From Malacoraja senta (lineage: Eukaryota): a DNA stretch of 64,000 nucleotides. Location: positions 5,270,001 to 5,334,000 of the forward strand of contig CM075991.1 of the NCBI GenBank assembly GCA_038087875.1, read 5' to 3'. Under the pieces are notes generated by a model. The model made no database searches. It had not been told where the DNA came from and saw nothing but the letters and a program-made list of their open reading frames with translations. A program made the position numbers and the translations under genes. Position 1 is the stretch's first letter; each line of letters begins with the position of its first letter. Shown in pieces: positions 12,700-61,911 of the stretch.

Positions 12700-13765
12700 T
12701 TTAGTTTAGAGATACAGCGTGGAAATAGGCCCATCGGCCCACCGAGTCTGCGCCGACCAGTTCTATGTTATCCCAGTTTTGCATCCTCTACACTAGAGAT
12801 AATTAACAGTAGCCAATTAACCTACCATCCTGTACGTCTGTGGAATGTGGGAGGAAAACAGAGCACCCAGAGGAAAACCCACGCTGTCACAGGGAGAACA
12901 TGTAGACTCCACACTGCCAGCACCCCTAGTCAGGATCGACCACGGATCTCTGGCGCTGTGTAGATGTGATATGCATGTGCCTTTAACATAGTGACCTCAT
13001 ACCTACTAACCACTCCCCATATCACAAGTATATCTACAACCTCCCCACCCACAGACCCGCTGGCCGATTATCCCGACCGCTTTGATGATAAGCTAGGCAA
13101 ACTACCCTGCAGCTACAAGATTGTAGTGGACCATAAGATCGTTCCTGTGGTCCATGCTCCTCACCGTGTCTCCTTCGCCATGAGGGACAGAGTGGAGGCG
13201 ACCCTACACAGTATGGTACAAATGGGCGTCCTAAAGGCGGTCGTTGAGCCCACCAGCTGGGTCTCTTCCATGGTTGTTGCTGCTAAAAAGGCACATGCAT
13301 ATCACATCTACACGCTGTAAGGCAGTAACTCTACCCACAGAGTCCATGCTGACTAATGATCACCCATTCACCAGTTCTATCCCATACACACCAGCGACGA
13401 TTTACAGAAGCTGGTATTTTGATCTGGTATTTTGTTGGTTCACATGCTTGATCAATGGTGTTTTATCATTAATGTTTTATTATTATTAATGTTTAGTGTT
13501 TTCCGAGTCATTCGTAACAGTCACTGTATGTCATGTTGTTACTTGTGGGCGGAGCACCAAGGCAAATTCCTTGTATGTGAATACTTGGCCAATAAACTTA
13601 CTTACTTCCTGCACGACTTTAGAATGTGCGAAGAAACCGGAGCACCTGGAGAAACCCACACGGTCACAGGGAGAGTATACAAAGCCCATACAGACAGCAC
13701 CCATAGTCAGGATTGAACCTGGGTCTCTGGCGCTGTAAAGCAGCAACTATATCGCTGTGCCGCCC
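12700..13765 (-). mobile_element. Two tandem HE1-type SINEs, hosting the TIR/Gypsy insert and a LINE 3' UTR insert (13415-13607)
   Basis: SINE consensus resumes on both sides of each insert. Confidence 0.78.
12959..13312 (+). mobile_element. 354-bp TIR element (TGT...ACA) carrying a Ty3/Gypsy pol fragment; Ginger-like non-autonomous element
   Basis: Perfect 26-bp TIRs TGTAGATGTGATATGCATGTGCCTTT (12959-12984 / 13287-13312) and 5-bp TSD CGCTG (12954-12958 / 13313-13317), inserted in a SINE head. Internal frame ...LGKLPCSYKIVVDHKIVPVVHAPHRVSFAMRDRVEATLHSMVQMGVLKAVVEPTSWVSSMVVAAKK resembles the start of a Gypsy RT. Confidence 0.85.
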
Positions 13766-14249
13766 GTGTCTGATGGTATATTAACACATTGATGCCCCAT
13801 CGTTTTGCCCAGCGCTCTAGCTGGGGGACCATTTGACCCGGTGCCAACACACTGCAGTGTCGGGTATCAGTGACTTACTTCTGCGGGCAGCTGCTTGAAA
13901 GGTCTAACAGTGAAACACAAGCTGGGACAAGTTGGCTTTTTTCCCCCCTGACATCCTGAAATAAGCAGCAAGTGGACGGCCCAGCTGTAACCCAGAGCAG
14001 CTCACTCAGATCATTTACAACTCGATCAAACTCTTCAGCTACCTCTGCCCTTTGAATTTGCGTAAAGCTAAGATTCTTCCCGCTCCCTCCCTCGTGGCAG
14101 GTTACAGGTGACCTCCGCACTGCAGTAGTTCAGGTAACAAACTTACCCTCACTAATGTGGCAAGTCAATACCAAATAAATATCTGAGATATGGAATGGAA
14201 ATTTGCTCTCTCAGAATGAGTGTCAATTTTTAATCTTGCTTTCAGCTTC

Positions 14250-16244: not shown

Positions 16245-17113
16245 ATTCCTTCGCTCCATTGATGCTGCCTCACCCGCTGAGTTTCTCCAGGTTTTTTGTC
16301 TACCTTCGATTTTTCCAGCATCTGCAGTTCTTTCTTAAACAAAGTGCAAAGGGAGGCGACGATTAAAATTTGTAAATATGTTTATTATTTCCCAACGCAC
16401 AGACAGCGCACGTAAATATATGGTTGTCATTGGGGAAGTATTATATCACCTTTGCATTCTGCGTACGTGGGTGATTGAATACAAACATTTGGATGAAAGA
16501 ATCATCAGGTTTGAGCTACTCGGGTCTAGCTCTATACATTCTGCGTGGTACTGCATTACAATAGAAGTCTAGGAGGACAAATCCAAGCTTCCATTTGTAT
16601 CATTCCTTTCATAATGTCATGACTAAAGCACTTGGCCTAACTCTGATGTGAAATCGATGTTACACAGAAAGAATTGTCCAGCATTTAAGAGAAAGCTAGG
16701 AAGGAACTGGGGGATTTTAATTATGAGGGGGGATTGGATATGTTGAGTTTGTTATCCTTAGAGTGAGAGGTAAATATGTTTATGAGACATCAACAGGGTA
16801 TATAATCAGTAATTTTCCATGGCGAGGTAATCTAAAAAAGCCCATAGGCTTAAGGCAAGAGAATTTTTTTTTTTTTTAAAGTGCGGTTGATGTCTACAAT
16901 CCAGAAGGGATGTTGATCATCAGATAGCTTTGACTTCATTCATCCACACTTACTGTGCTTCAGTATGGGACTCATGCATTTTGAAGACTTTGACAGTACA
17001 TGTACTAAAGTGTGGTTAGAGTTTGCAGTACAATGTGTGTTCACAGCTCAGCTGAAGGCAACGTAATCCAAAGAAACAGTCTGAAGAAGGGGCCAGACCC
17101 ATAATGTCATCTG

Positions 17114-17320
17114 AAGGTACACAAAAATGCTGGAGAAACTCAGCGGGTGCAGCAGCATCTATGGAGCGAAGGAAATAGGTAACGTTTCGGGCCGAAACCC
17201 TTCTTCGGCCCGAAACGTTACCTATTTCCTTCGCTCCATAGATGCTGCTGCACCCGCTGAGTTTCTCCAGCATTTTTGTGTACCTTCGATTTTCCAGCAT
17301 CTGCAGTTCCTTCTTTAACA
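17114..17320. mobile_element. Penelope-derived fold-back element with perfect 84-bp inverted repeat
   Basis: Arms 17113-17196 / 17204-17287 with a 7-nt loop; 15-bp TSD CCATAATGTCATCTG (17099-17113 / 17321-17335). The arm sequence matches the 3' region of the Penelope copy at 52764-52885. Confidence 0.88.
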
Positions 17321-23196: not shown

Positions 23197-24491
23197 AAGT
23201 CAAGTCAAGTCAAGTGAGTTTATTGTCATGTGTCCCTGATAGGCATTGACTACAAAACAGATCAGTGTGTCCATATACCATAATATAAATATATACACAC
23301 ATGAATAAATAAACTGATCAAGTGCAGATAACAGAAAATCGGTTATTAATAATCGGAGTTTTGTCCGAGCCAGGTTTAATAGCCTGATGGCTGTGGGGAA
23401 GTAGCTATTCCTGAACCTGGTTGTTGCAGTCTTCAGGCTCCTGTACCTTCCACCTGAAGGTAGCAGGGAGATGAGTGTGTGGCCAGGATGGTGTGGGTCT
23501 TTGATGATACTGCCAGCCTTTTTGAGGCAGCGACTGCGATAAATCCCCTCGATGGAAGGGAGGTCAGAGCCGATGATGGACTGGGCAGTGTTTACTACTT
23601 TTTGTAGTCTTTTCCTCTCCAGGGCGCTCAAGTTGCCGAACCAAGCCACGATGCAACCGGTCAGCATGCTCTCTACTGTGCACCTGTAGAAGTTAGAGAG
23701 AGTCCTCCTTGACAAACCAACTCTCGTAATCTTCTCAGGAAGTAGAGGCGCTGATGAGATTTCTTGATAATTGCATTAGTGTTCTCGGACCAGGAAAGAT
23801 CTTCAGAGATGTGCACCCCCAGAATTTGAAGCTCTTGACCCTTTCAACCATCGACCCATTGATATAAATGGGACTGTGGGTCCCCATCCTACTCCTTCCG
23901 AAGTCCACAATCAGTTCCTTGGTTTTGCTGGTGTTGAGGGCCAGGTTATTGTGCTGGCACCATATGGATAGTTGCTCGATCTCTCTTCTATACTCTGACT
24001 CACCCCCATCAGTGATACGTCCCACCACAGTGGTGTCGTCAGCGAACTTGATGATGGAGTTCACACTGTGACCGGCTACGCAGTCATGAGTATAGAGTGA
24101 GTACAGCAGGGGGCTGAGCATGCAGCCTTGAGGTGCTCCTGTGCTGATTGTTATCGAGGCTGACACATTTCCACCAATACGAACAGACTGTGGTCTGTGA
24201 ATGAGGAAGTCGAGGATCCAATTGCAGAGGGATGCGCAGAGACCCAGTTCTGCGAGTTTGGTAACCAGCTTGGAGGGGATGATTGTGTTAAATGCCGAGC
24301 TGTAATCGATGAATAACAGCCTGACATATGAGTTTTTGTTGTCCAAGTGGTCCAGAGCAGAGTGGAGGCCAAGCGAGATCGCATCCACCGTTGATCTGTT
24401 GTGGCGGTAAACGAACTGCAGTGGGTCCAGGTTTTTGTCAAGGTAGGAGTTGATTTGCTCCATGATCAACCTCTCAAAGCACTTCATCACC
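23197..24491 (-). mobile_element. Rex1/Babar-type LINE, 5'-truncated, RT domain with frameshifts
   Basis: ORFs 23735-24490 ([51 protein letters not shown]) and 23200-23715 (FYRCTVES, HPGH, LLPSGGRYRS); (GACTT)n tail; interrupts a CR1 copy. Confidence 0.92.
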
Positions 24492-24770
24492 TTAAAGGGT
24501 GCTCTTTTAGAAAGGTGGTGAGGAGGAACTTCTTTAGTCAGAGGGTAGTTAATCTGTGGAACTCATTGCCACAGAGGGCTGTGGAGGCCAAGTCAGTGGA
24601 TATTTTTAAGGCAGAGATAGACAGATTCTTGATTAGAACATGTGTCAAGGGTTACGGGGAGAAGGCAGGAAAATGGGATGAGGAGGCAGAGATCAGCCAT
24701 GATTGAATGGCGGTGTTGACTTGATGGGCCGAATGGCCTAATTCTACTCCGATAACTTGTGAGCTTGTGA
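24492..24770 (+). mobile_element. CR1 3' fragment (5' part at about 23130-23196, split by the Rex1 insertion)
   Basis: GGTCATAGCCTCAGAATTAA|...|TTAAAGGGTGCTCTTTTAGAAAGG rejoins to the CR1 consensus. Confidence 0.85.
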
Positions 24771-28589: not shown

Positions 28590-29060
28590 GGCTCATGTTC
28601 ATAATTGATAGGAGCAGAATTAGGCCATTCCACCCAACAAGTCTACTCCGCCATTCAATCATGGCTGATCTATCTCTCCCTCCTAACCCCATTCTCCTGC
28701 CTTCTCCCCATAACCCCTGACACCCATACTAATCAAGATTACATCTCTGCCTTAAAAATATTTACTGACTTGACCTCCACAGCCTTCTGTGGCAATGAAT
28801 TCCATATATTCACCACCCTCTGACTAAAGAAATTCCTCCTCATCTTCCTAAAGGAACGTCCTTTAATTCTGAGGCTATGACCTCTGGTCCTGGACTCTCC
28901 CACTCGTGGAAACATCCTCTCCACATCTACTCTATCCAGGCCTTTCACTATTCAGTGTTACAATGAGATCCCCCCCCTCACTGATCCTTCTAAACTCCAG
29001 CAAGCAGTGGCCCAGTGCTGTCAAACGCTCATCATATGATAACCCACTCAGTGCTGAATA
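28590..29060 (-). mobile_element. CR1 3' fragment
   Basis: MKGLDRVDVERMFPRVGESRTRGHSLRIKGR...[11 protein letters not shown]. Confidence 0.88.
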
Positions 29061-30150
29061 ACTGAATGGGAGGAGGGACTGAAAGGGCTTCCTATTCCCA
29101 CGAGGTGGGGCTCAATGGGCTGAATGGCCAACCACTGCTTCAGTGCAGAAGTGGCGACTCTGCGACAGGGCTCTTCCCCTCTGACAAGGACCATTACAAC
29201 TAAGTAATGTGGACTGCAACAGGACTTCTGCTGTGTTGATAGAGGAGGTAGGCCCAAGGCATCAAAGGGCTTACATTTGGGTAGCACCCAGCTACAAATA
29301 TGTTCAGTGAGTCAGATAATTGATTTGCTGCCTTTAGATTTCACACCGATGAATGCCCGGTGGATGTTTTTTAAGCTGCAGATTGCAGTCTATAACTTTA
29401 AGTTCAAAGGGACCAAGTGCTTCGTAAATAGGAGTGAACTATGGGAGAAGCTTGTAAACCTTTACAGTACATTACTCAAGTAGGAGCTAAGGTGGAATGT
29501 GTCGGCTTTGTGTGTTTAAGTGTTCGGTGTCTCATCTTTAAAACTCACACGGATTAGAGCTAATTTACCCAAAGTCAGACCATGGACTTTGAAGATTTAA
29601 TTTTAACATGTTTAGAGAATTGCCTCCCTTCTCATTCTACAGTTACTTTCTAGATTATAAAATCCCAAACAACAGGCCCTTACGAAAGGGATGGGTGGGG
29701 GAGGGTGGGGGTGGGGGTGGGGGTGGGGGTAACATCACCAACTTTTGTGTGGTGTCTTTTAATGGGGCACGGTCGCGCAGGGGTAGAGTTGCAGCCTCAC
29801 AGCACCAGAGACCCCGGTTCGATCCTGACTACCGGTACTTGTCTGTACGGAGTTTGTACGTTCTCCCCGTGACCTGCGTGGGTTTTCTCCGGAATCTTCA
29901 GCTTCCTCCCAAAGATGCACAAGTTTGTAGGTTAATTGACTCGGTATAATTGTAAATTGTCCCTAGTGTGTGTGCAGGATAGTGTTAGTGTGCGGGGATC
30001 GCTGGTTGGCGCAGACTTCTGTATCTCTAAATTAAAATAAGTATACTGAGAAACAATACACCCTTTAAAAAATTGCAAATAACGCGCCAAATTGGGAATA
30101 TTGAAATATTAAGTGTTTATTAATTAATTATTAATAAGATTTATAAAGTG

Positions 30151-30217
<67 letters not shown>

Positions 30218-30248
30218 CAAATTAAATAATCAGACCACTTCATCAGTG

Positions 30249-30448
30249 NNNNNNNNNNNNNNNNNNNNNNNNNNNNNNNNNNNNNNNNNNNNNNNNNNNN
30301 NNNNNNNNNNNNNNNNNNNNNNNNNNNNNNNNNNNNNNNNNNNNNNNNNNNNNNNNNNNNNNNNNNNNNNNNNNNNNNNNNNNNNNNNNNNNNNNNNNNN
30401 NNNNNNNNNNNNNNNNNNNNNNNNNNNNNNNNNNNNNNNNNNNNNNNN
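30249..30448. other. Assembly gap (200 N)
   Basis: Run of N. Confidence 1.
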
Positions 30449-31640
30449 TTCTAAACTCCAGCAAGCAGTGGCCCAGTGCTGTCAAACGCTCATCATATGT
30501 TAACCCACTCAGTGCTGAATAACTGAATGGGGAGGAGAGACTGAAAGGCCTTCCTATTCCCACGAGGTGGGCTCAATGGGCTGAATGGCCAACCACTGCT
30601 TCAGTGCAGAAGTGGCGACTCTGCGACAGGGCGCACCCCCTCACCTGTCAAAGGCTCTTCCCCTCTGACAAGGACCATTACAACTAAGTAATGTGGACTG
30701 CAACAGGACTTCTGCCTGTGTTGATAGAGGAGGTAGGCCCAAGGCATCAAAGGGCTTACATTTGGGTAGCACCCAGCTACAAATATGTTCAGTGAGTCAG
30801 ATAATTGATTTGCTGCCTTTAGATTTCACACCGATGAATGCCTGGTGGATGTTTTTTAAGCTGCAGATTGCAGTCTATAACTTTAAGTTCAAAGGGACCA
30901 AGTGCTTCGTAAATAGGAGTGAGCTATGGGAGAAGCTTGTAAACCTTTACAGTACATTACTCAAGTAGGAGCTAAGGTGGAATGTGTCGGCTTTGTGTGT
31001 TTAAGTGTTCGGTGTCTCATCTTTAAAACTCACACGGATTAGAGCTAATTTACCCAAAGTCAGACCATGGACTTTGAAGATTTAATTTTAACATGTTTAG
31101 AGAATTGCCTCCCTTCTCATTCTACAGTTACTTTCTAGATTATAAAATCCCAAACAACAGGCCCTTACGAAAGGGATGGGGTGGGGGAGGGTGGGGGTGG
31201 GGGTGGGGGTGGGGGTAACATCACCAACTTTTGTGTGGTGTCTTTTAATGGGGCACGGTCGCGCAGGGGTAGAGTTGCAGCCTCACAGCACCAGAGACCC
31301 CGGTTCGATCCTGACTACCGGTACTTGTCTGTACGGAGTTTGTACGTTCTCCCCGTGACCTGCGTGGGTTTTCTCCGGAATCTTCAGCTTCCTCCCAAAG
31401 ATGCACAAGTTTGTAGGTTAATTGACTCGGTATAATTGTAAATTGTCCCTAGTGTGTGTGCAGGATAGTGTTAGTGTGCGGGGATCGCTGGTTGGCGCAG
31501 ACTTCTGTATCTCTAAATTAAAATAAGTATACTGAGAAACAATACACCCTTTAAAAAAATTGCAAATAACGCACCAAATTGGGAACAATATTGAAATATT
31601 AAGTGTTTATTAATTAATTAATTAATAAGTTTATAAAGTG

Positions 31641-31642
<2 letters not shown>

Positions 31643-31704
<62 letters not shown>
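31643..31704. repeat. (ATT)n microsatellite (second copy at about 30152-30214)
   Basis: About 20 perfect TTA units. Confidence 0.95.
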
Positions 31705-31707
<3 letters not shown>

Positions 31708-33469
31708 CAAATTAAATAATCAGACCACTTCATCAGTGGCTTGGACTGACTAACAGCCTATACAGCAAAGGCAGTGTTTAGTTTAGTTAACTCTACCAGC
31801 TGCTCTGATGTGCCTCCCTTCTTATACTTGTGTTTTGTACAAGAAAACAAGCCCGTCTATCCACTCACAAAACCATCCATGTTTGGTGAATGGTGAAAGC
31901 CACAACAGCCTCTCATGCAAAACCTCTCATGTCTTTCAATCTCTTAATCAACATGATTCTTGACCTTCAAGCAGCAGCAATAACTTCTCCTTTGGTTAAT
32001 TTCCTCTCGACACTTCCTGGCAAGACAAACCTCCTCTGCTCAACCCTAGGACGATTATATGTATAATTTATGTCTAATTTATGCTTTTGTGTGCTGTCTG
32101 AGTCGATATGCCTGCGATGCTGCTGGAAGCAGGAATTTCATTGTTCCTCTACCTCACCGGGACTGTACATGTGATAATATATTAGACTTGACTTGATTTT
32201 AAGAATGTATCAGTTATATCTATGTAGCCAGCTTCTATAGATTCAATGCTATGTCAGTGACTGCAGGTACCAGCTGTAATAAGATTTTTTGAAAAAAGCC
32301 TTCATCTTCTTCCTTACTCAGGACAAGGATGTACAGGAGCCAGCGTTACTAAAGGTCAAATAATGGAGACTATTGTTTGGTCAGTTTCAATTTACTAAGC
32401 AGAGACATTTTCTGTGGTGTGGGGGATGAGCACCTTTTGGCTTGAGGTTTGGATGGGGGGGTGGGGGAGGGGTAGGGGTAAGAGGCAGAGGTGGGGGGAG
32501 GGGCGTAGTCGAATGCAGTTCTGAATCCAAGGATTTAATCACAGATAGAAGCAGAGTTGCCGGTGCAAAAGAAAGAACAATGTTTTTTTAATGAGTAACG
32601 CAATTGTCAACCTTTGTATGGCCGATGTTCCCCAGAGTGAACGGAGGCCCCAGTAATCCCCCAGAGGAGATAGCCAGAATGACCAATTCCAGATAAACAG
32701 CTGGACTCACAAAGCTGCCACATAATTATACCCGCGGCTTTAGCCTCTTGCACTTATTTAATAAGAAAACGTCCTTAAAAAAAAAAATCTAACCGCTATA
32801 GGAGAAAATTAATTGGTAATTAAAGGAGAATTACAAAAGCGTTCCCCTCAAGGACTTGGGTGGAGCATTCACTTAACACTCGACATCCTGGATTAACCCT
32901 CCAAACGCCAGACCTCCTTAGAAACACACAAAGCGCTGGAGTAATTCAGCAGGTCAGGCAGTATCTCTGGAGAACATGGATAGGTGATGTTTTGAGATGG
33001 GACCTGTCTTCAGACTGGCAGCTCAAGTTCCTTGATATCAGTTCTCATTACAAGGTCAGCTCTTTCCCAGCTTTCTCCCCCCTCTGCTCCTCCCAGTCTG
33101 AAGAAGGGTTCCCTGAGCCGAAATGCCGTCTTGGTCCACCGATGTTGCCTGACCCGCTGAGTTGCTCCAGCACTTTGGGTTCTGCCCTTTGATCGAGAGC
33201 TCTTTGATCTGCCCTTCCGAACATCACGGCCACTATTTATTAATGGCTGTGGTTTGCTTTTCCGCATTGAAGTTTTGAACTGAAAATCTTGGTTATTCTT
33301 GGGGATGTGGACAATGTAGGCAAGGTCACTATTTGCTGTGGTCATTATTTACTCAGTCTGAGACTCTTTGAACTGTTGGCCAGGCGATTAATGCAACCCA
33401 GAGGAGATGCTGTACACTGGCGGGCAAAATACAAACTGCTGATAACACTCGACAGGCCCCAGCAGCTTC

Positions 33470-54365: not shown

Positions 54366-56029
54366 AACAAAAAAAAACTATTTTGATGGCAGACCTTCCC
54401 TTTTCTGCAATTCCCGGACTCGGTACTTACCTAAAATCTGTTGCACCTCACACTCTATCTAGTGAAAGTCAACCATCTCCACAGATGCTGCCTGATCCGC
54501 AACTGCTTTCAGTGCATTTTCATTCATTAGTTATAGGTTTGCTGATTCATTTAGCATTCAAGCTTATTTGTGGATAAGGTTCACTACATATTTTCAAGAT
54601 GAACAATATTGAAAATATTTTGCTTTCCAAAACAAACTCCTTTCAAAAGGACACCACACTAATTCATGCCTTCAACTGAAAGCAGCTTTGGGTTAGAAGT
54701 GAATTTCGAAACAAGCCCTACACTTGATTGCACTTAGAAAGCTCCTAAACATCGGTTTGTGGGAGTTGCCATCAGTTGACAGAAAAACCCTGAACATACA
54801 CAGGCTTGGGCCAGGACAGAAAGTCAGTGGTTTGCAGAGGACTCGAGAAATGTGAAAAGATCTGCTGTTTTCTGTTTGTTTTTCAATTTTTTATTCACAC
54901 AGTTTCTAGCCAACAGGAAATTGCAGGCTGCAACAGAGATCACTTCTGTGACTGGCTTGGCTGAGGAAAGAGTGGGCTCAACTCCTTTTCCTGATTTTAA
55001 AAGAGTTTTATTGATTATCATTGCCTGTCACATGAGGCAATTATTCAATCTGGATATCTGGCTTTAAGACTTTCATTAAAGTAGCAGAGATACATTTGGG
55101 TTGGAGTTTTTTTTCTGGTAAACAAAAGTTGAATGTTTTATTAGATTCTGCCAAATTGACACTTAGTGGTTTTTGAACCAACCCAATAAAAGCAATCAGT
55201 TAAAACCCCATGTGCCTGCTGCCTCCAGATCACGGCAAAGATAGCAATATGAGCTCCAAGAATGTTCTCTTTTCTCACAAGTGTTGAGAACTTCAAAACG
55301 TGAGGTTCGAAAATAATGAATTCCCAACACTTTCATCTTATTCCCAATACCCAACATGAATTTTCAAGCAGTCAAATGCATGACTGTCTTACAGGTAGTG
55401 CTCTTCTGGTTGCTGCCTCACAGCTCCAGAAACCAGAGTTCAATGTTGACCTGCGGTGCTGTCTTCGGTGAGTACTTTCCATGAGATTGCTTGCACCTTC
55501 TCCGGATGCTCATGTTTCTTCCCAAGTCACAGGAACTAACATATTGGTAGCATAATTGGCCGTTAAAATGTGCCTCTCATGTTTTTAATTAATTGAAATA
55601 TCGTCAAGTCAAGAGAGTTTATTGTCATGTGTCCCAGATAGGACAATGCTTCAGCACAACAGAATATAGTAGGCATGAATACAGCATGGATACATTGAGT
55701 CCATGCCCACTATCGATCACCCTTTCCACTAGTTCTATGTTATCCAACTTTTGCACCCACACCTTTAGGGCAATTTACTGAGGCCTATCAACCTACAAAC
55801 CTGCATATAATTGGGATCTGGAAGGAAACTGGAGCACCCAGAGGAAACACACATAAACAGCATCCGGAGTCAGCAAACAAGAATTTAATTGTCCTATCTG
55901 GGACACATGACAATAAACTCTCTTGACTTGACTTGACTTGGGTCGTACCCGGGTCCCTGGCATTGAAAGGCAATTACGCTACCAGATGCGCCTCCGTGGG
56001 AAGAATTAAAATTACTCTAGGATTAGAAT

Positions 56030-56454: not shown

Positions 56455-56720
56455 TAGTTTTAAGTTTAGTTTATTGTCACGTGTACCGAGGTACAGTGAA
56501 AAGCTTTTGGTGCAAGCTCACCAGTCAGCGGAAAAACAAATCATGAGTACAATCGAGCCATCCACAGAAATATAATAAAGGGAATGAGTGCAAGATAAAT
56601 CAAGATCGTCTGAGGGTCTCCAATGAGATAGATAGTTGTTCAGGACTGCTCTCTAGTTGTTGGTAGGATGGTTCAGTTGCCTGATAACAGCTGGGAGGAA
56701 ACTGTCCGTGAATCTGGAGC
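56455..56720 (-). mobile_element. Rex1-type LINE 3' UTR fragment (related copies near 15160, 17490, 22400, 25075, 40465, 52150, 61130)
   Basis: TTTATTGTCACGTGTACCGAGGTACAGTGAAAAGC...CCTGATAACAGCTGGGA. Confidence 0.7.
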
Positions 56721-57291
56721 AGTGTGTGTTCAATCCCGTGAGATGCCATCAGTTCACAAGACAACTTTAATTTGCCCCACATCTATCACTGATATTTTAC
56801 ATTTAAAAAATCCCTATTCTTCCCTACAATCGCACGTTATGCGGACACCACTGACAGGAACTCGGCAGGTAACGGAAGCTTCCCTGAATGTCCAGAGTCC
56901 CACAAGCCCACGGGGGATGTTTATAAAAGTGGTCTGCTCCACATATTGGCAGTATTTCACCATCTGTTTCAAGTTTCCCACCAGATCTTGCTTGGTCTCT
57001 GGAGAGGTGACAGGAGGAGGTCATTCCACACTAAGCTAGAGGCGGAGGGCCAGGGCAAGAACAGGCTCACCAAATGCTTGAACCACCTGCAGGAGCAACT
57101 TGCATGGAGACAGGGGCCAGGTGTTTAAATCTGTTCTTATTTCTCCTGCTTCCAGAAATCCAAGACTACATAAAATAGTAGTGTCAATGGACAAGTACAC
57201 ATGTGTATTGCTGAATGGAACAGAATAGAATTGAATTGAATTCTTTATTATGACATGTGAAAAAAATCTTTGTTTTCCATACCATACCCAG

Positions 57292-58056
57292 AGTATAGGG
57301 TGGTGCCGTCAGCCTTGCCAACAGTCTGTCTGCCTTTTCATCTTGTTTTATTATTTTTAGTGTGTTTTAAAAGTATGTGTTAATGTTCTCTGGTTTGTTT
57401 TATGTGGGGGGGGGGGGGGTTGGTGAAGGGGGTCGGGGAAAACTATTTTCAGTCTCCTACCTTGCCGGAGATGCAATTGTTTTCCGGATCGTATCTCCGG
57501 TCGCCCTGCGGCCTAACATCATGGAGTTGGTGGCCTTGCTCGAAATTGACTTTGAGCCCCACCGCGGTGCCGTGGACTTAACACCGGAGCCGATCCCTTG
57601 CCCGGGATCGATGCTCCAACCACGGCCTGCGGATTTCAACATCGAGGAGCTCGTAGTCTCGGGTAGAGACTGAAGTCGGGAAGCTCCAAAGTCGCAAGAG
57701 GTTCAACTAGCCCCGACCCGGGGTCTGATCGCCCGGCGCGGGGGAGCTGAGATCCCCCCGATGCAGGAGCTTGATCGCACCGACATGGAGGGCCCGACCG
57801 CCGTCTACGGGAGACAATGTCGTCCCGTCAACAGAAGGTTCGAGTGCCCTGACCACGGGGAAACTAAGAAGGGAAGAAGATTGAATTTTTTTTGCCTTCC
57901 ATCACAGTGAGGAATATGGGGGAGTCACTGTGGTGGATGTTCATGTTAAAAATTTATTTGTGTATTGTTGCTCTTTATTGGTATGACTGTATAGCAAATC
58001 TAATTCCTTGTATGTTGTAAAACATACTTGGCTAATAAAGTACTATTATGACTATG
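57292..58056 (+). mobile_element. CpG-rich non-coding repeat with LINE-type 3' tail (probable non-autonomous retroposon)
   Basis: 3' end AATTCCTTGTATGT...TACTTGGCTAATAAA is shared with the tails at 13415-13607 and about 4670-4712 (minus); CpG-dense body; no credible ORF. Confidence 0.55.
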
Positions 58057-58981
58057 ATAATGTAACAGTGCTCAATGTAGTCCCGGTGGTCCCTCTTCAT
58101 TATCCGTGGTCCTCTCTACACCGACTCCCTCTTTATTCTCGGAGTCGGAGTCCCTCTTTGTCCTCAGCGGCTCCCCCACGCCGTGTCCCCCTTTGTATTT
58201 GTACCGTGTGCACATACACGTCACAGAGCCATACAGCATGAAAACAGGCTCTGTGGCCCAATTTACCGTGCCGATCAAGCTACCCCATCTACGTTAGTCC
58301 ATGTTTGGTCCATATCCCTCTAAAATATCCATACACTGCCTACCTGCATTTTAAACGCTGCTACAGTACCACAAGTACATTTCACAATGTACAAATTACC
58401 ATCATGTAACGCAAGCACCTTTTTAGAGGGAGAGGGAGAGGGAGAGGGAGAGGGAGAGGGAGAGGGAGATGGTTGCCCGGCCTAGAATGATCAATAACAC
58501 ACCTTGAGAAGCATCCAAAAAACATGCTACTATATTTCTCTCTCTTGGCAGTGCGACCATTTATTTCATGCCACAGAGACAAATCTCTTCAGTGTCAACC
58601 GAACTTACCTTTTGTCAATTTGGGTCAAACACCTTCATCCCACACACTTACACTGCTCAGCTTGTTTCCAGCTCCCGACTAATGGCATTGTGGGCTGCAG
58701 TGAGTAACACAGCTGTTATTGGCTCGTGAACTTCACCCACAGCAGCCCCATATCCAGAAAGGCACCGGGTAATCTAATCACATCTTCAAGAAAATGCCCT
58801 CGCACTGATGCTCTCTTCCTCGTCTTGCCCACAAATGTTTGATAAGGTCAGTCGGTCTGACCGATTTCATTGTTTACAAAAAGTGGTTTTATTAAGATTT
58901 ATTAAAAATAAAATGAAGACTGTCAATGAAGTATTTAGGTTAAACCTTAACAGTGAAAAAAACTGCTCTTATCTTGAAGTT

Positions 58982-59110
58982 GGAGAGAGAGAGAGAGTAG
59001 AGAGAATGTAGAGAGAGAGAGAGAGAGGGAGGGAGAGAGGGAGAGGGAGAGAGAGAGGGGGAGAGGGAGAGAGAGAGAGAGAGAGAGGGGGGGAGGGGGA
59101 GGGGGAGAGG

Positions 59111-59148
<38 letters not shown>

Positions 59149-59382
59149 GAGGGGGAGAGAGACAGAGAGAGAGGGTGAGGGGGAGGGGGAGAGGGAGGGA
59201 GAGAGAGGGGGAGGGGGAGAGGGAGAGGGAGAGAGAGAGGGGGAGGGGGAGAGGGAGAGAGGGAGGGGGAGAGGGAGAGAGAGAGAGGGAGAGAGAGGGG
59301 GAGGGGGAGAGAGAGGGAGAGGGAGAGGGAGAGGGAGAGGGAGGGGGAGGGGGAGAGGGAGAGGGAGAGGGAGAGAGAGAGG
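58982..59382. repeat. About 400-bp polypurine (GA/GGGAGA)n tract; shorter one at 58426-58469
   Basis: Almost exclusively G and A on the plus strand. Confidence 0.95.
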
Positions 59383-61267
59383 CAGCAATCAGGTCATGAG
59401 GGCAGTTTTATAATAAGAGAGTGAACAGATTGAACGGAACAAACAGCAAGCTGTAAACTCTGGAGACTCTGGTGGTTCACTTTTAGAGTAAAACCCTCGT
59501 GAGGTCACATGTTTTTTTTACAAGTTCCCACATCTGACCAGGCGTGGGTGGGGGGAATTTCAAGTTGGGTACCTTATGCACTGCTTCAATGAGGGTCAAA
59601 CAAGACACGAGAGAGATGTCCAATCCCCAGACACGGTTTAGAGAAGTACCACAAGTCTGATCCCAGGCAGGAGAGGACTCGGGAATGAGAAAAACTGGAG
59701 CATTTGGGCTTTTCACCCATGAAAGATGCGACTGAAACTTTCGACTGACTCAAGATTTCACAGAGTAAAAGGATTCTCGAACTAAAGCCACTATAAAAAA
59801 TCTAGGAACAACTCTAGATTATATGGAAGGTACACAAAAATGCTGGAGAAACTCAGCGGGTGCAGCAGCATCTATGGAGCGAAGGAAATAGGCAACGTTT
59901 CGGGCCAAAACCCTTCTTCAGACTATTTATATGGAGCTGTGAGGTGCTTTCAATCTTAGACCGTTTGATTTCACATTCTTTAATACACTTGCCTAAACAT
60001 AAAATAGTTTTTTTTCTATTTTTTTCCCACCACTTCCCTTATGCACCGTTCTAGCTTTGAAGAAAAGAGTTCTATTAACATTTTGTGACTAATGTGCCCG
60101 CCAGCAGTGCTACATGTTGTTTAAAGTTTATCTGCTCTTGTTCTCGTCTGCCCAACCAAAGAACTGAGTTTCTCTCTATTAAATCTTATCAACTTCATAA
60201 ATCATTGCAGATATCAGGGAGAACTCATTCATTCCAAGGGAATACAATCCTAGACACCTAGACCTAGAAGGCATCATTCTGGTGAAATCGCAGTGTGTCA
60301 CTCATGGACGACAGCCTTGGAGAGGCTGGTAGGGACTTGAGCACAATCCTCCTAAGAGAACACTAAGAAAAGATAAGACAGACACAAAGTGCTGGAGTAA
60401 CTCTGCGGGCCAGGCAGCAACTATGGAGAAAAAGGATGGGTGACAGTTTGTCGGGACCCTTCTCCAGAGACACTGCCTGACCTCAAGAGTTATTCCAGCA
60501 CTTTGTGTCTATCTTCAGTATAAACCAGCATCTGCAGTTCCTTTCTACATCTAAGAAAACATAGGCAGTTAAGTTTTTCAGAATTCCAGAATGAAACAGC
60601 CAATGACTCCTAATTTTTTTCAGAATATTTTTTTAAACAAGAGTCCACTAGCTTTTCACGGCAATTGGACGGGACCAGAAATTTCTCCGCTACTCAACAC
60701 TCAACGCTTTGATCCACCTTTCTCCATTTCAGAGCCATCCACCTGCCATCAGTCTTCGGAGGCAGCAGAAGTTGAAAACAGAAGAACGCAGGAGTAAATT
60801 TAAGAATGACGGCAGACATTTCTGTCGCATGGATGATCAATGCATAAATGGGCAGCAGATGAAAAAGGAAATGTTAGATTCACTTGAGAAATTATGTTTT
60901 CTATTTACAGCGGATGAAGGAAGTAGAGATTCTGAACTTGGTGGAGCTTGAAGATCACGACCCAAAACATTGCCTGTCCATTCAGTCAAAGCGTCATACA
61001 GCGTGGAAACAGGCCCTTCGGCCCTACTTGCCTACGCCGACCATCATGCCCCACCTACACTAGTCCCACCTGCCTATGGAGTCACACAGCATAGTCATAC
61101 ATGTAACATTTTTCTCCACTGATGCAGTGCTGAACTACCATCTACCTCCTTGGTGACCCTCAGACTATCCTTGATCGGACTTTGCTGGCGTTACCTTACA
61201 CTAAACACTATTCCCTTATCATGTAAATGGCTCAATTGTAATCATGTGTTGTCTTTTGCTGACTGGA

Positions 61268-61655
61268 TAGACAATAGACAATAGGTGCAGGAGTAGTCCA
61301 TTTGGCGGTTCGAGCCAGCACCGCCATTCAATGTGATCATGGCTGATCATCCCCAATCAGTACCCCGTTCCTGCCTTCTCCCCATATCCCCTAACTCCGC
61401 TATTTTTAAGAGCCCTATCTAGCTCTCTCTTGAAAGCATCCAGAGAACCTGCCTCCTCCGCCCTCTAAGGCAGAGAATTCCAGACTCACCACCCTCTGTG
61501 AGAAAAAGTGTTTCTTCGTCTCTGTTCTAAATGGCTTACTCCTTATTCTTAAACTGTGGCCCCTGGTTCTGGACTCCCCCAACATCGGGAACATATTTCC
61601 TGCCTCTAGCGTGTCCAAGCCCTTAACAATCTTATGTTTCAATGAGATCCCCTCT
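61268..61655 (-). mobile_element. CR1 3' fragment nested in a Rex1-type UTR
   Basis: KIVKGLDTLEAGNMFPMLGESRTRGHSLRI; direct repeat CTGGATAG at both junctions. Confidence 0.88.
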
Positions 61656-61911
61656 CTGGATAGCACGCAAGAAAAGCTTTTCACTGTACCTCGGAACACG
61701 TGACAATAAACTAAACTGAAAATGATGCTGCCTGACCGGCTGTGTTTCTCCAGCAGTTAATGTTATTTCTGGGAGTGGGGGGGATTGGTGAAAATAGTAT
61801 GGGAGGGAAGAGCGGAGATGGTGAAACCGTTAACTTCCAAATTCACCTCCTTTGGGTAAGGGTTGAAGTGCAGGGCCTAAATTTCAAATTGAAGAAGAGC
61901 CTCAACATTAA

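Follow-up and report, generated by a model that had tools for sequence, protein, structure and literature searches.

A young 354-bp insert in a Malacoraja senta SINE with probable U3 ends at both tips, most likely from a one-off aberrant Gypsy insertion

The window analysed here is a stretch of 64,000 nt from Malacoraja senta (assembly GCA_038087875.1, contig CM075991.1, positions 5,270,001 to 5,334,000 of the forward strand). Within it, a SINE is interrupted at 12959-13312 by an insert of 354 bp. The features of the locus are:

12700..12958, minus strand: body and most of the head of the host SINE (~68-80% identity to other copies in the window)
12954..12958, no strand: left copy of the target site duplication (TSD), CGCTG, which occurs only once where other SINE copies have an empty site
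12959..12984, plus strand: left arm of the 26-bp perfect inverted repeat, which is the first 26 bp of the LTR-like end
12959..13055, plus strand: end of a repeated element, 97 bp, starting with TGTAG (TGTNR), interpreted as the U3 (5') end of a Gypsy LTR
13029..13032, plus strand: TATA-like motif and putative promoter element, with TATAA-type variants in other copies (loose contig ends behind 13020 in runs X1 and X4)
13054..13055, plus strand: 2-nt microhomology GA at the LTR-to-pol junction (chance 0.16)
13054..13291, plus strand: Gypsy pol fragment, 238 bp with 79 stop-free codons, from between protease and RVT_1
13287..13291, plus strand: 5-nt microhomology AAAGG between pol and the inverted LTR end (chance of at least 5 nt ~0.005)
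13287..13312, minus strand: right arm of the terminal inverted repeat (TIR), an inverted copy of nt 1-26 of the LTR-like end, of which 21 bp are non-pol
13313..13317, no strand: right TSD copy, CGCTG
13318..13335, minus strand: rest of the host SINE head with its first ~11 bases missing, followed by another SINE copy

As stated in the original prediction, the two ends of the insert match perfectly over 26 bp in inverted orientation, counted inwards from the TGT and ACA tips. By chance, ~1e-8 such inverted pairs are expected, and two matches of the 23-nt end occurred in 0 of 100 shuffles. CGCTG flanks the insert on both sides. Among the other SINE copies of the window that carry the same junction, the insert is absent in 17 of 17; 16 run through the junction uninterrupted and one has a short extra stretch there, and two of the 17 represent one probable false duplication. 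As all 17 copies lack the insert, CGCTG is a true duplication, and the predicted clean split of a SINE is borne out. One additional flanking base also pairs, which extends the inverted repeat to 27 bp (12958-12984 and 13287-13313), so that the sequence alone would allow a TIR of 27 bp and a duplication of 3 bp (GCT). This is disfavoured by contigs that start at 12959, which therefore favour TGT...ACA tips with a 5-bp TSD. Two adjacent insertions in opposite orientation followed by a deletion were ruled out, because both outer edges share one 5-bp TSD (chance ~0.001). The insert DNA has a strong predicted fold (z -5.2), which reflects only the panhandle formed by the TIRs.

The head of the host SINE is presumably tRNA-derived; an Rfam search with a sister copy returned two matches only, both sub-threshold. 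In the region 13318-13770, the truncated host head is followed by a second SINE copy at ~13334-13411 and 13588-13768, broken by ~180 bp that end in short ACTT repeats and are possibly a LINE 3' end. Elsewhere in the window, we observed a perfect 84-bp inverted repeat with a 7-base spacer at 17113-17287, a fully homogenised fold-back derived from a common genome repeat. A 1.3-kb segment is present twice with 97% identity (28988-30248 and 30449-31738) around a gap of 200 N, probably a false duplication from scaffolding. On the minus strand at 23200-24562, two open frames (191 and 275 aa) resemble pieces of a non-LTR retrotransposon reverse transcriptase. Perfect inverted pairs of 45 bp (55603-55932) and of 23 bp with similar flanks (56486-61694) may be ordinary non-autonomous DNA elements.

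The interior of the insert had been described as about 80 stop-free codons resembling the protease-RT junction of Gypsy Pol. Homology to Gypsy Pol was confirmed, with 66% identity over 87 aa to P0001 and 80% identity over 55 aa to P0002. The latter, a gene model from Amblyraja radiata, is the closest named relative, suggesting a skate or ray as the host. The pol-derived part, however, spans only 79 codons and contains neither catalytic site. A HMMER search returned 1448 proteins at E up to 0.001. Six matches were scanned, and the five long ones carry RT, RNase H and integrase in Gypsy order, with a protease preceding RT in two of the five; the sixth contains Gag only. In P0009, the matching region comprises residues 414-493, between the protease (310-391) and RVT_1 (494-649), and because the piece falls between these domains it has no catalytic site. 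Pfam analysis of the 116-aa frame alone detected 0 families. The stop-free frame comprises 116 codons in total, its non-pol part being open by happenstance. In translated searches of the window with seven relatives, the insert was the sole match. The left TIR, whose frame reads like a protease tail, was considered as such and dropped, as contigs put the start of the Pol homology at 13054. At 13245, the T of the window is a C in 20 of 20 contigs counted (16, 3 and 1). The transporter-like model P0002 contains, in the region of residues ~520-690, Gag-like sequence that meets the same Pol piece at a point 5 codons before the junction in the window. As a loose contig end has CAG just before this join, it is probably a predicted intron and not a deletion.

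The borders of the pieces were read from public contigs. Ten public runs were listed, with no RNA run among them, and four contained at least half of the sampled words; contigs were placed on the window from X1 (2196), X3 (17), X4 (12) and X8 (0). The evidence comprises the 24 of 2230 placed pieces and the 18 of 91 loose ends that were listed; contigs omit rare forms, coverage in X3 and X4 is shallow, and the species sequenced in these runs may differ from that of the window. Of the listed contigs, four begin at 12959 and one each at 12960 and 12957, after foreign sequence. Past 13051/13055, contigs enter a shared non-pol sequence in all three runs with placed contigs. Hand translation of loose ends showed that the Pol frame continues before 13054 in eight X1 and two X3 contigs and behind 13291 in one X3 contig, and the residues outside the piece are those that flank it in P0001 and P0002. 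The pol piece was thus delimited to 13054-13291. One X4 contig (record 20) fits up to 13055 and one X3 contig (record 13) from 13054, each with 0 differences, so that the two pieces overlap by the GA of the junction. The seven best-matching of the 24 listed pieces show 0-2 differences over 57-181 bp (98-100% identity), whereas the remaining listed pieces differ by up to ~12%. That each piece is 0-2 differences from its best contigs supports a recent event, as had been proposed.

Several properties of the left 97 bp point to an LTR. Its summed depth exceeds that of pol in X1 (~1e6 versus 1-4e5), X3 (37-46 versus 7-19) and X4 (17-31 versus 3-10); although depth is not copy number, a several-fold higher value in all three runs is as expected from LTRs plus solo LTRs. 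An X4 loose end before 12959 terminates in an 11-nt purine run, with an agreement of 0.64 among three records compared to an estimated ~0.56 for three unrelated flanks. No contig joining the LTR-like end to pol or to a primer-binding site (PBS) was present among those listed. Most likely, the left 97 bp are the U3 end of a Gypsy LTR, the cognate LTR being deduced from these properties. The cut at nt 97 lies ~25 bp past the TATA-like motif and hence near the would-be transcription start, which may be a coincidence. Another X4 loose end, before 12972, represents a variant of the LTR-like end that shares the first six bases, while its start differs and is 3 bases shorter. Therefore, subfamilies exist, and the right TIR exactly matches the variant of the window itself.

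Alternatively, the 97-bp end could be the terminus of a high-copy, Ginger-like DNA transposon with long TIRs. In this case, a transposase would have moved the insert, a deletion derivative that had acquired Gypsy pol through gap repair. Contigs alone cannot tell a TIR from an LTR start, and long TIRs would place both ends of such an element on the left arm. The TGTNR termini seen here (TGTAG) are common to Ginger and Gypsy and hence not diagnostic, and the insert also shares terminal inverted repeats and an integrase-type TSD with Ginger1 and Ginger2/TDD. PMC2836005 gives TIRs of 40-270 bp and a 4-bp CCGG/CCGT TSD for animal Ginger1, and TIRs of 50-180 bp with a 4-bp TSD in AT-rich RTATAY for Ginger2/TDD, with 5 bp in Dictyostelium TDD (TDD-4/5). 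The insert has 26-bp TIRs and a GC-rich target, CGCTG, and agrees with TDD in TSD length alone. GingerRoot elements are described with 6-bp TSDs, TIRs of 100-150 bp and ends that are mostly TA (PMC6839031). The insert furthermore lacks a transposase, and no amplified junction was found among the listed contigs; one molecule, not two neighbouring insertions, apparently provided both ends. The TATA-like motif, the flank resembling a polypurine tract (PPT), the orientation matching that of pol, the equal youth of the pieces and the co-scaling depth in three runs instead fit one LTR family. A Ginger-like origin of the left end is thus very unlikely, and by its TIR length and TSD the insert does not belong to Ginger1 or Ginger2. 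The earlier suggestion of a Ginger-type MITE with captured Gypsy sequence finds no support in TIR length, TSD length or target, all of which differ from animal Ginger1/2, and no family is visible.

If the LTR of this family natively ended in a long inverted repeat, the insert could be merely an internally deleted element, composed of a 5' LTR start, a pol piece and a 3' LTR tip. This is the simplest topology, and matches as short as an LTR tip would probably be missed by contig placement. A metagenome scan yielded 78 loci, 23 of which have a long-range direct repeat; the five with both LTR tips visible by eye were taken as relatives. Their LTRs are 107-229 bp long and have perfect terminal inverted repeats of only 3-8 bp in 5 of 5, with 9-15 of 26 positions matching. 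In all five, a purine tract precedes the TGT of the 3' LTR, and the purine run of the X4 loose end before 12959 resembles these tracts. An exact 5-bp TSD was found in L062 and a match in 4 of 5 positions in L013, while three had none or lay at a contig edge. Although their Pol proteins are only ~40-50% identical to P0001, which makes them distant relatives and not the cognate family, a 26-bp perfect terminal repeat is not native to the LTRs of these five, and we regard a native long inverted repeat as highly improbable. The LTR-like start of the window showed no significant similarity to the LTRs of the five relatives. A resemblance to the L062 LTR start noted by eye proved to be chance, as 175 of 300 shuffles were equally good; the best of the five, L013, was reached by 9 of 300 shuffles and scored similarly in reverse.

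The inner junctions, at 13055 and 13291, are spanned by no contig among the pieces listed, the window contains gaps and the probable false duplication at 28988-31738 mentioned above, and amplification chimeras also display inversions with microhomology. An assembly or library chimera would nevertheless have to stop precisely at nt 1 of the LTR and then pick up the SINE again with 5 bp duplicated (chance ~0.001), and misjoins in an assembly graph require overlaps far longer than 2-5 nt. In addition, an X1 depth of ~52-54 at 13300-13331 is left over after two listed SINE joints, which by arithmetic could stem from a lone single-copy contig that extends across the right end. Together, this renders a chimera extremely improbable.

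Depth also bears on whether the insert is one of many. At 13300-13315, X1 has a depth of 60.8, compared to 8e4-1e6 for the parts in X1, so that the right inverted end lies more than 1000-fold below the pol and left parts in that run; in both X3 and X4 the depth there is 0. The sole joint among the listed pieces is the empty SINE site. In the 64-kb window, the insert and its ends are single-copy, unlike a MITE, in which one short TIR element is repeated at numerous sites. Exact matches of the 23-nt end were absent (0) from viral contigs and metagenome contigs, and protein-based locus searches yielded no confirmed relative in viral contigs (3 candidate stretches) or prokaryote genomes (153). A high-copy family of this insert is therefore unlikely, and a few copies remain compatible with the contig data. 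Overall, the insert is real and young and most likely represents a single aberrant event of Gypsy integration that left U3 at both tips.

On balance, we think it probable that the insert is an aberrant Gypsy cDNA that acquired two U3 ends by template switching and was inserted by Gypsy integrase. The source would be one young, high-copy Ty3/Gypsy family, whose own integrase would insert the DNA. Plus-strand DNA starting at LTR nt 1 would jump at nt 97 into pol via GA, or else the deletion from nt 97 to pol might be later than the insertion. After a further 238 nt, the 3' end AAAGG would pair with CCTTT of a U3 start, either that of its own 5' end in a fold-back or that of a second short plus-strand intermediate, and copying would proceed to LTR nt 1. 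In a one-step variant, two plus strands might anneal 3' end to 3' end, each being extended on the other to give the whole duplex. Integrase would then take both U3 ends and insert them in concert with a 5-bp stagger, the target being an older SINE. In the standard scheme as presented in PMC6894440, U3 precedes pol only in DNA and not in genomic RNA, which makes the insert a DNA-level product. By analogy, Ty1 offers a precedent for U3-U3 insertion: its integrase carries out concerted integration of U3-only donors in vitro, with a preference for U3 (PMC8487063), and inserts any TG...CA DNA with a 5-bp duplication, while strand switching gives rise to composite Ty1 elements (PMC2939329); Ty1 is, however, a copia-type element. 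The other predicted alternative, a piece of Gypsy inserted in trans with a single LTR end repeated in inverted orientation on both sides, fits the three-piece anatomy, although the identity of the LTR is deduced.

The same sequence can also be produced by genomic repair after a normal insertion, and one locus cannot separate the two. A normal full-length Gypsy element would in this case have inserted at CGCTG and undergone remodelling within the chromosome afterwards. After breakage in pol, the broken end would fold back on the 5' LTR start via AAAGG/CCTTT, copy ~16-21 nt and rejoin where the tip of the 3' LTR naturally carries a short inverted repeat; fold-back templated insertion, alternative end joining or MMBIR could accomplish this. 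LTR nt 98 to pol would be lost in another deletion, the TSD would be original and a U3-U3 substrate would never have existed. The order of LTR then pol is indeed collinear with a normal element, the 3-8-bp inverted repeats at the LTR tips of the relatives could serve the return jump, and PMC11724301 describes microhomology-mediated fold-back inverted duplications of ~5-34 bp at yeast breaks; the window itself holds the perfect 84-bp fold-back. We nevertheless consider remodelling unlikely, as the rejoining would presumably have to hit the last few bases of a multi-kb element despite many nearer short matches, and two large deletions would be needed in a copy whose pieces are each only 0-2 bases from their relatives.

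If read as an aberrant cDNA, the insert can be placed relative to known element types. With Ty3/Gypsy LTR retrotransposons, it shares a TGTNR start, a 5-bp TSD, the PR-RT-RH-IN order in its relatives, a pol piece 66-80% identical to P0001/P0002 and a putative LTR start that lies upstream of pol in the same orientation; the closest elements are those of the short-LTR type of aquatic animals, putatively Mag-like/K02A2.6-like. Its tips, TG...CA, and its TSD lie within the range of LTR retrotransposons (4-6 bp). In contrast to these elements, which are ~4.5 kb long, it measures 354 bp and lacks a direct LTR pair, a U5 end, a PBS and a PPT, and its right tip is an inverted copy of the presumed U3 start. 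In TRIMs, direct LTRs are accompanied by a PBS and a PPT; the insert has no direct terminal repeat and is thus neither an intact nor a TRIM-like element. It is also not an ordinary solo LTR, as 238 bp of pol lie within it and the LTR-like part is cut at nt 97. With TRIMs, solo LTRs and autointegration circles, it has in common that small LTR-derived pieces are inserted by integrase or rearranged. Autointegration itself was ruled out, because it joins an LTR tip to the target (PMC7197481), whereas in the insert the joint lies within the LTR, with the tip facing outward. Aberrant products of Ty1 integrase share TG...CA DNA, a 5-bp duplication and strand-switch joins (PMC2939329, PMC8487063), but are laboratory events of a copia-type yeast element, whereas the insert is natural and stems from an animal assembly. 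Unlike the Ty1 composites, it consists solely of parts of its own element and has inverted U3 tips. HIV proviruses with internal inversions have been reported, and the passages of PMC9278108 on these contain no inverted U3 tips. In its presumed mode of insertion, the insert thus resembles a Gypsy cDNA joined to the genome by integrase, while its outward form is that of a MITE, and it would be a new form of aberrant LTR insertion. A search of mainly open-access literature turned up no report of a natural insert from an LTR element that bears U3 ends in inverted orientation at both tips; older work on Ty1 or retroviruses may report such inserts.

For annotation, the locus is a warning that a perfect TIR, a TSD and TGT ends need not mean a MITE. 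The insert is a single locus and encodes no integrase, and as it has no PBS-like motif, no purine tract of at least 9 nt and no direct repeats, it is incapable of normal retrotransposition and most likely a dead end. The proposal that it is an intermediate between LTR retroelements and cut-and-paste elements therefore holds for its structure only, with no sign of amplification or re-mobilisation. In their Discussion, Bao et al. (PMC2836005) considered that the TIRs of Ginger1 perhaps arose from two LTRs in opposite orientation and called the route unclear. The insert displays this inverted-LTR geometry at base resolution, with perfect TIRs, one LTR-like end, a 5-nt template switch and a single TSD, and thereby yields a precise search signature for genome-wide counting. 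Although probably a copying accident, it shows how cut-and-paste-like elements could arise from retrotransposons. It is distinctly unlikely that U3-U3 inverted mini-elements recur in this Gypsy family as independent inserts with varied interiors and their own 5-bp TSDs, some of them re-mobilised as DNA. If they did, such inserts would represent a one-step route from LTR retrotransposon to TIR element, caught in the act, and the same accident across the integrase gene would give a Ginger1-like transposon.
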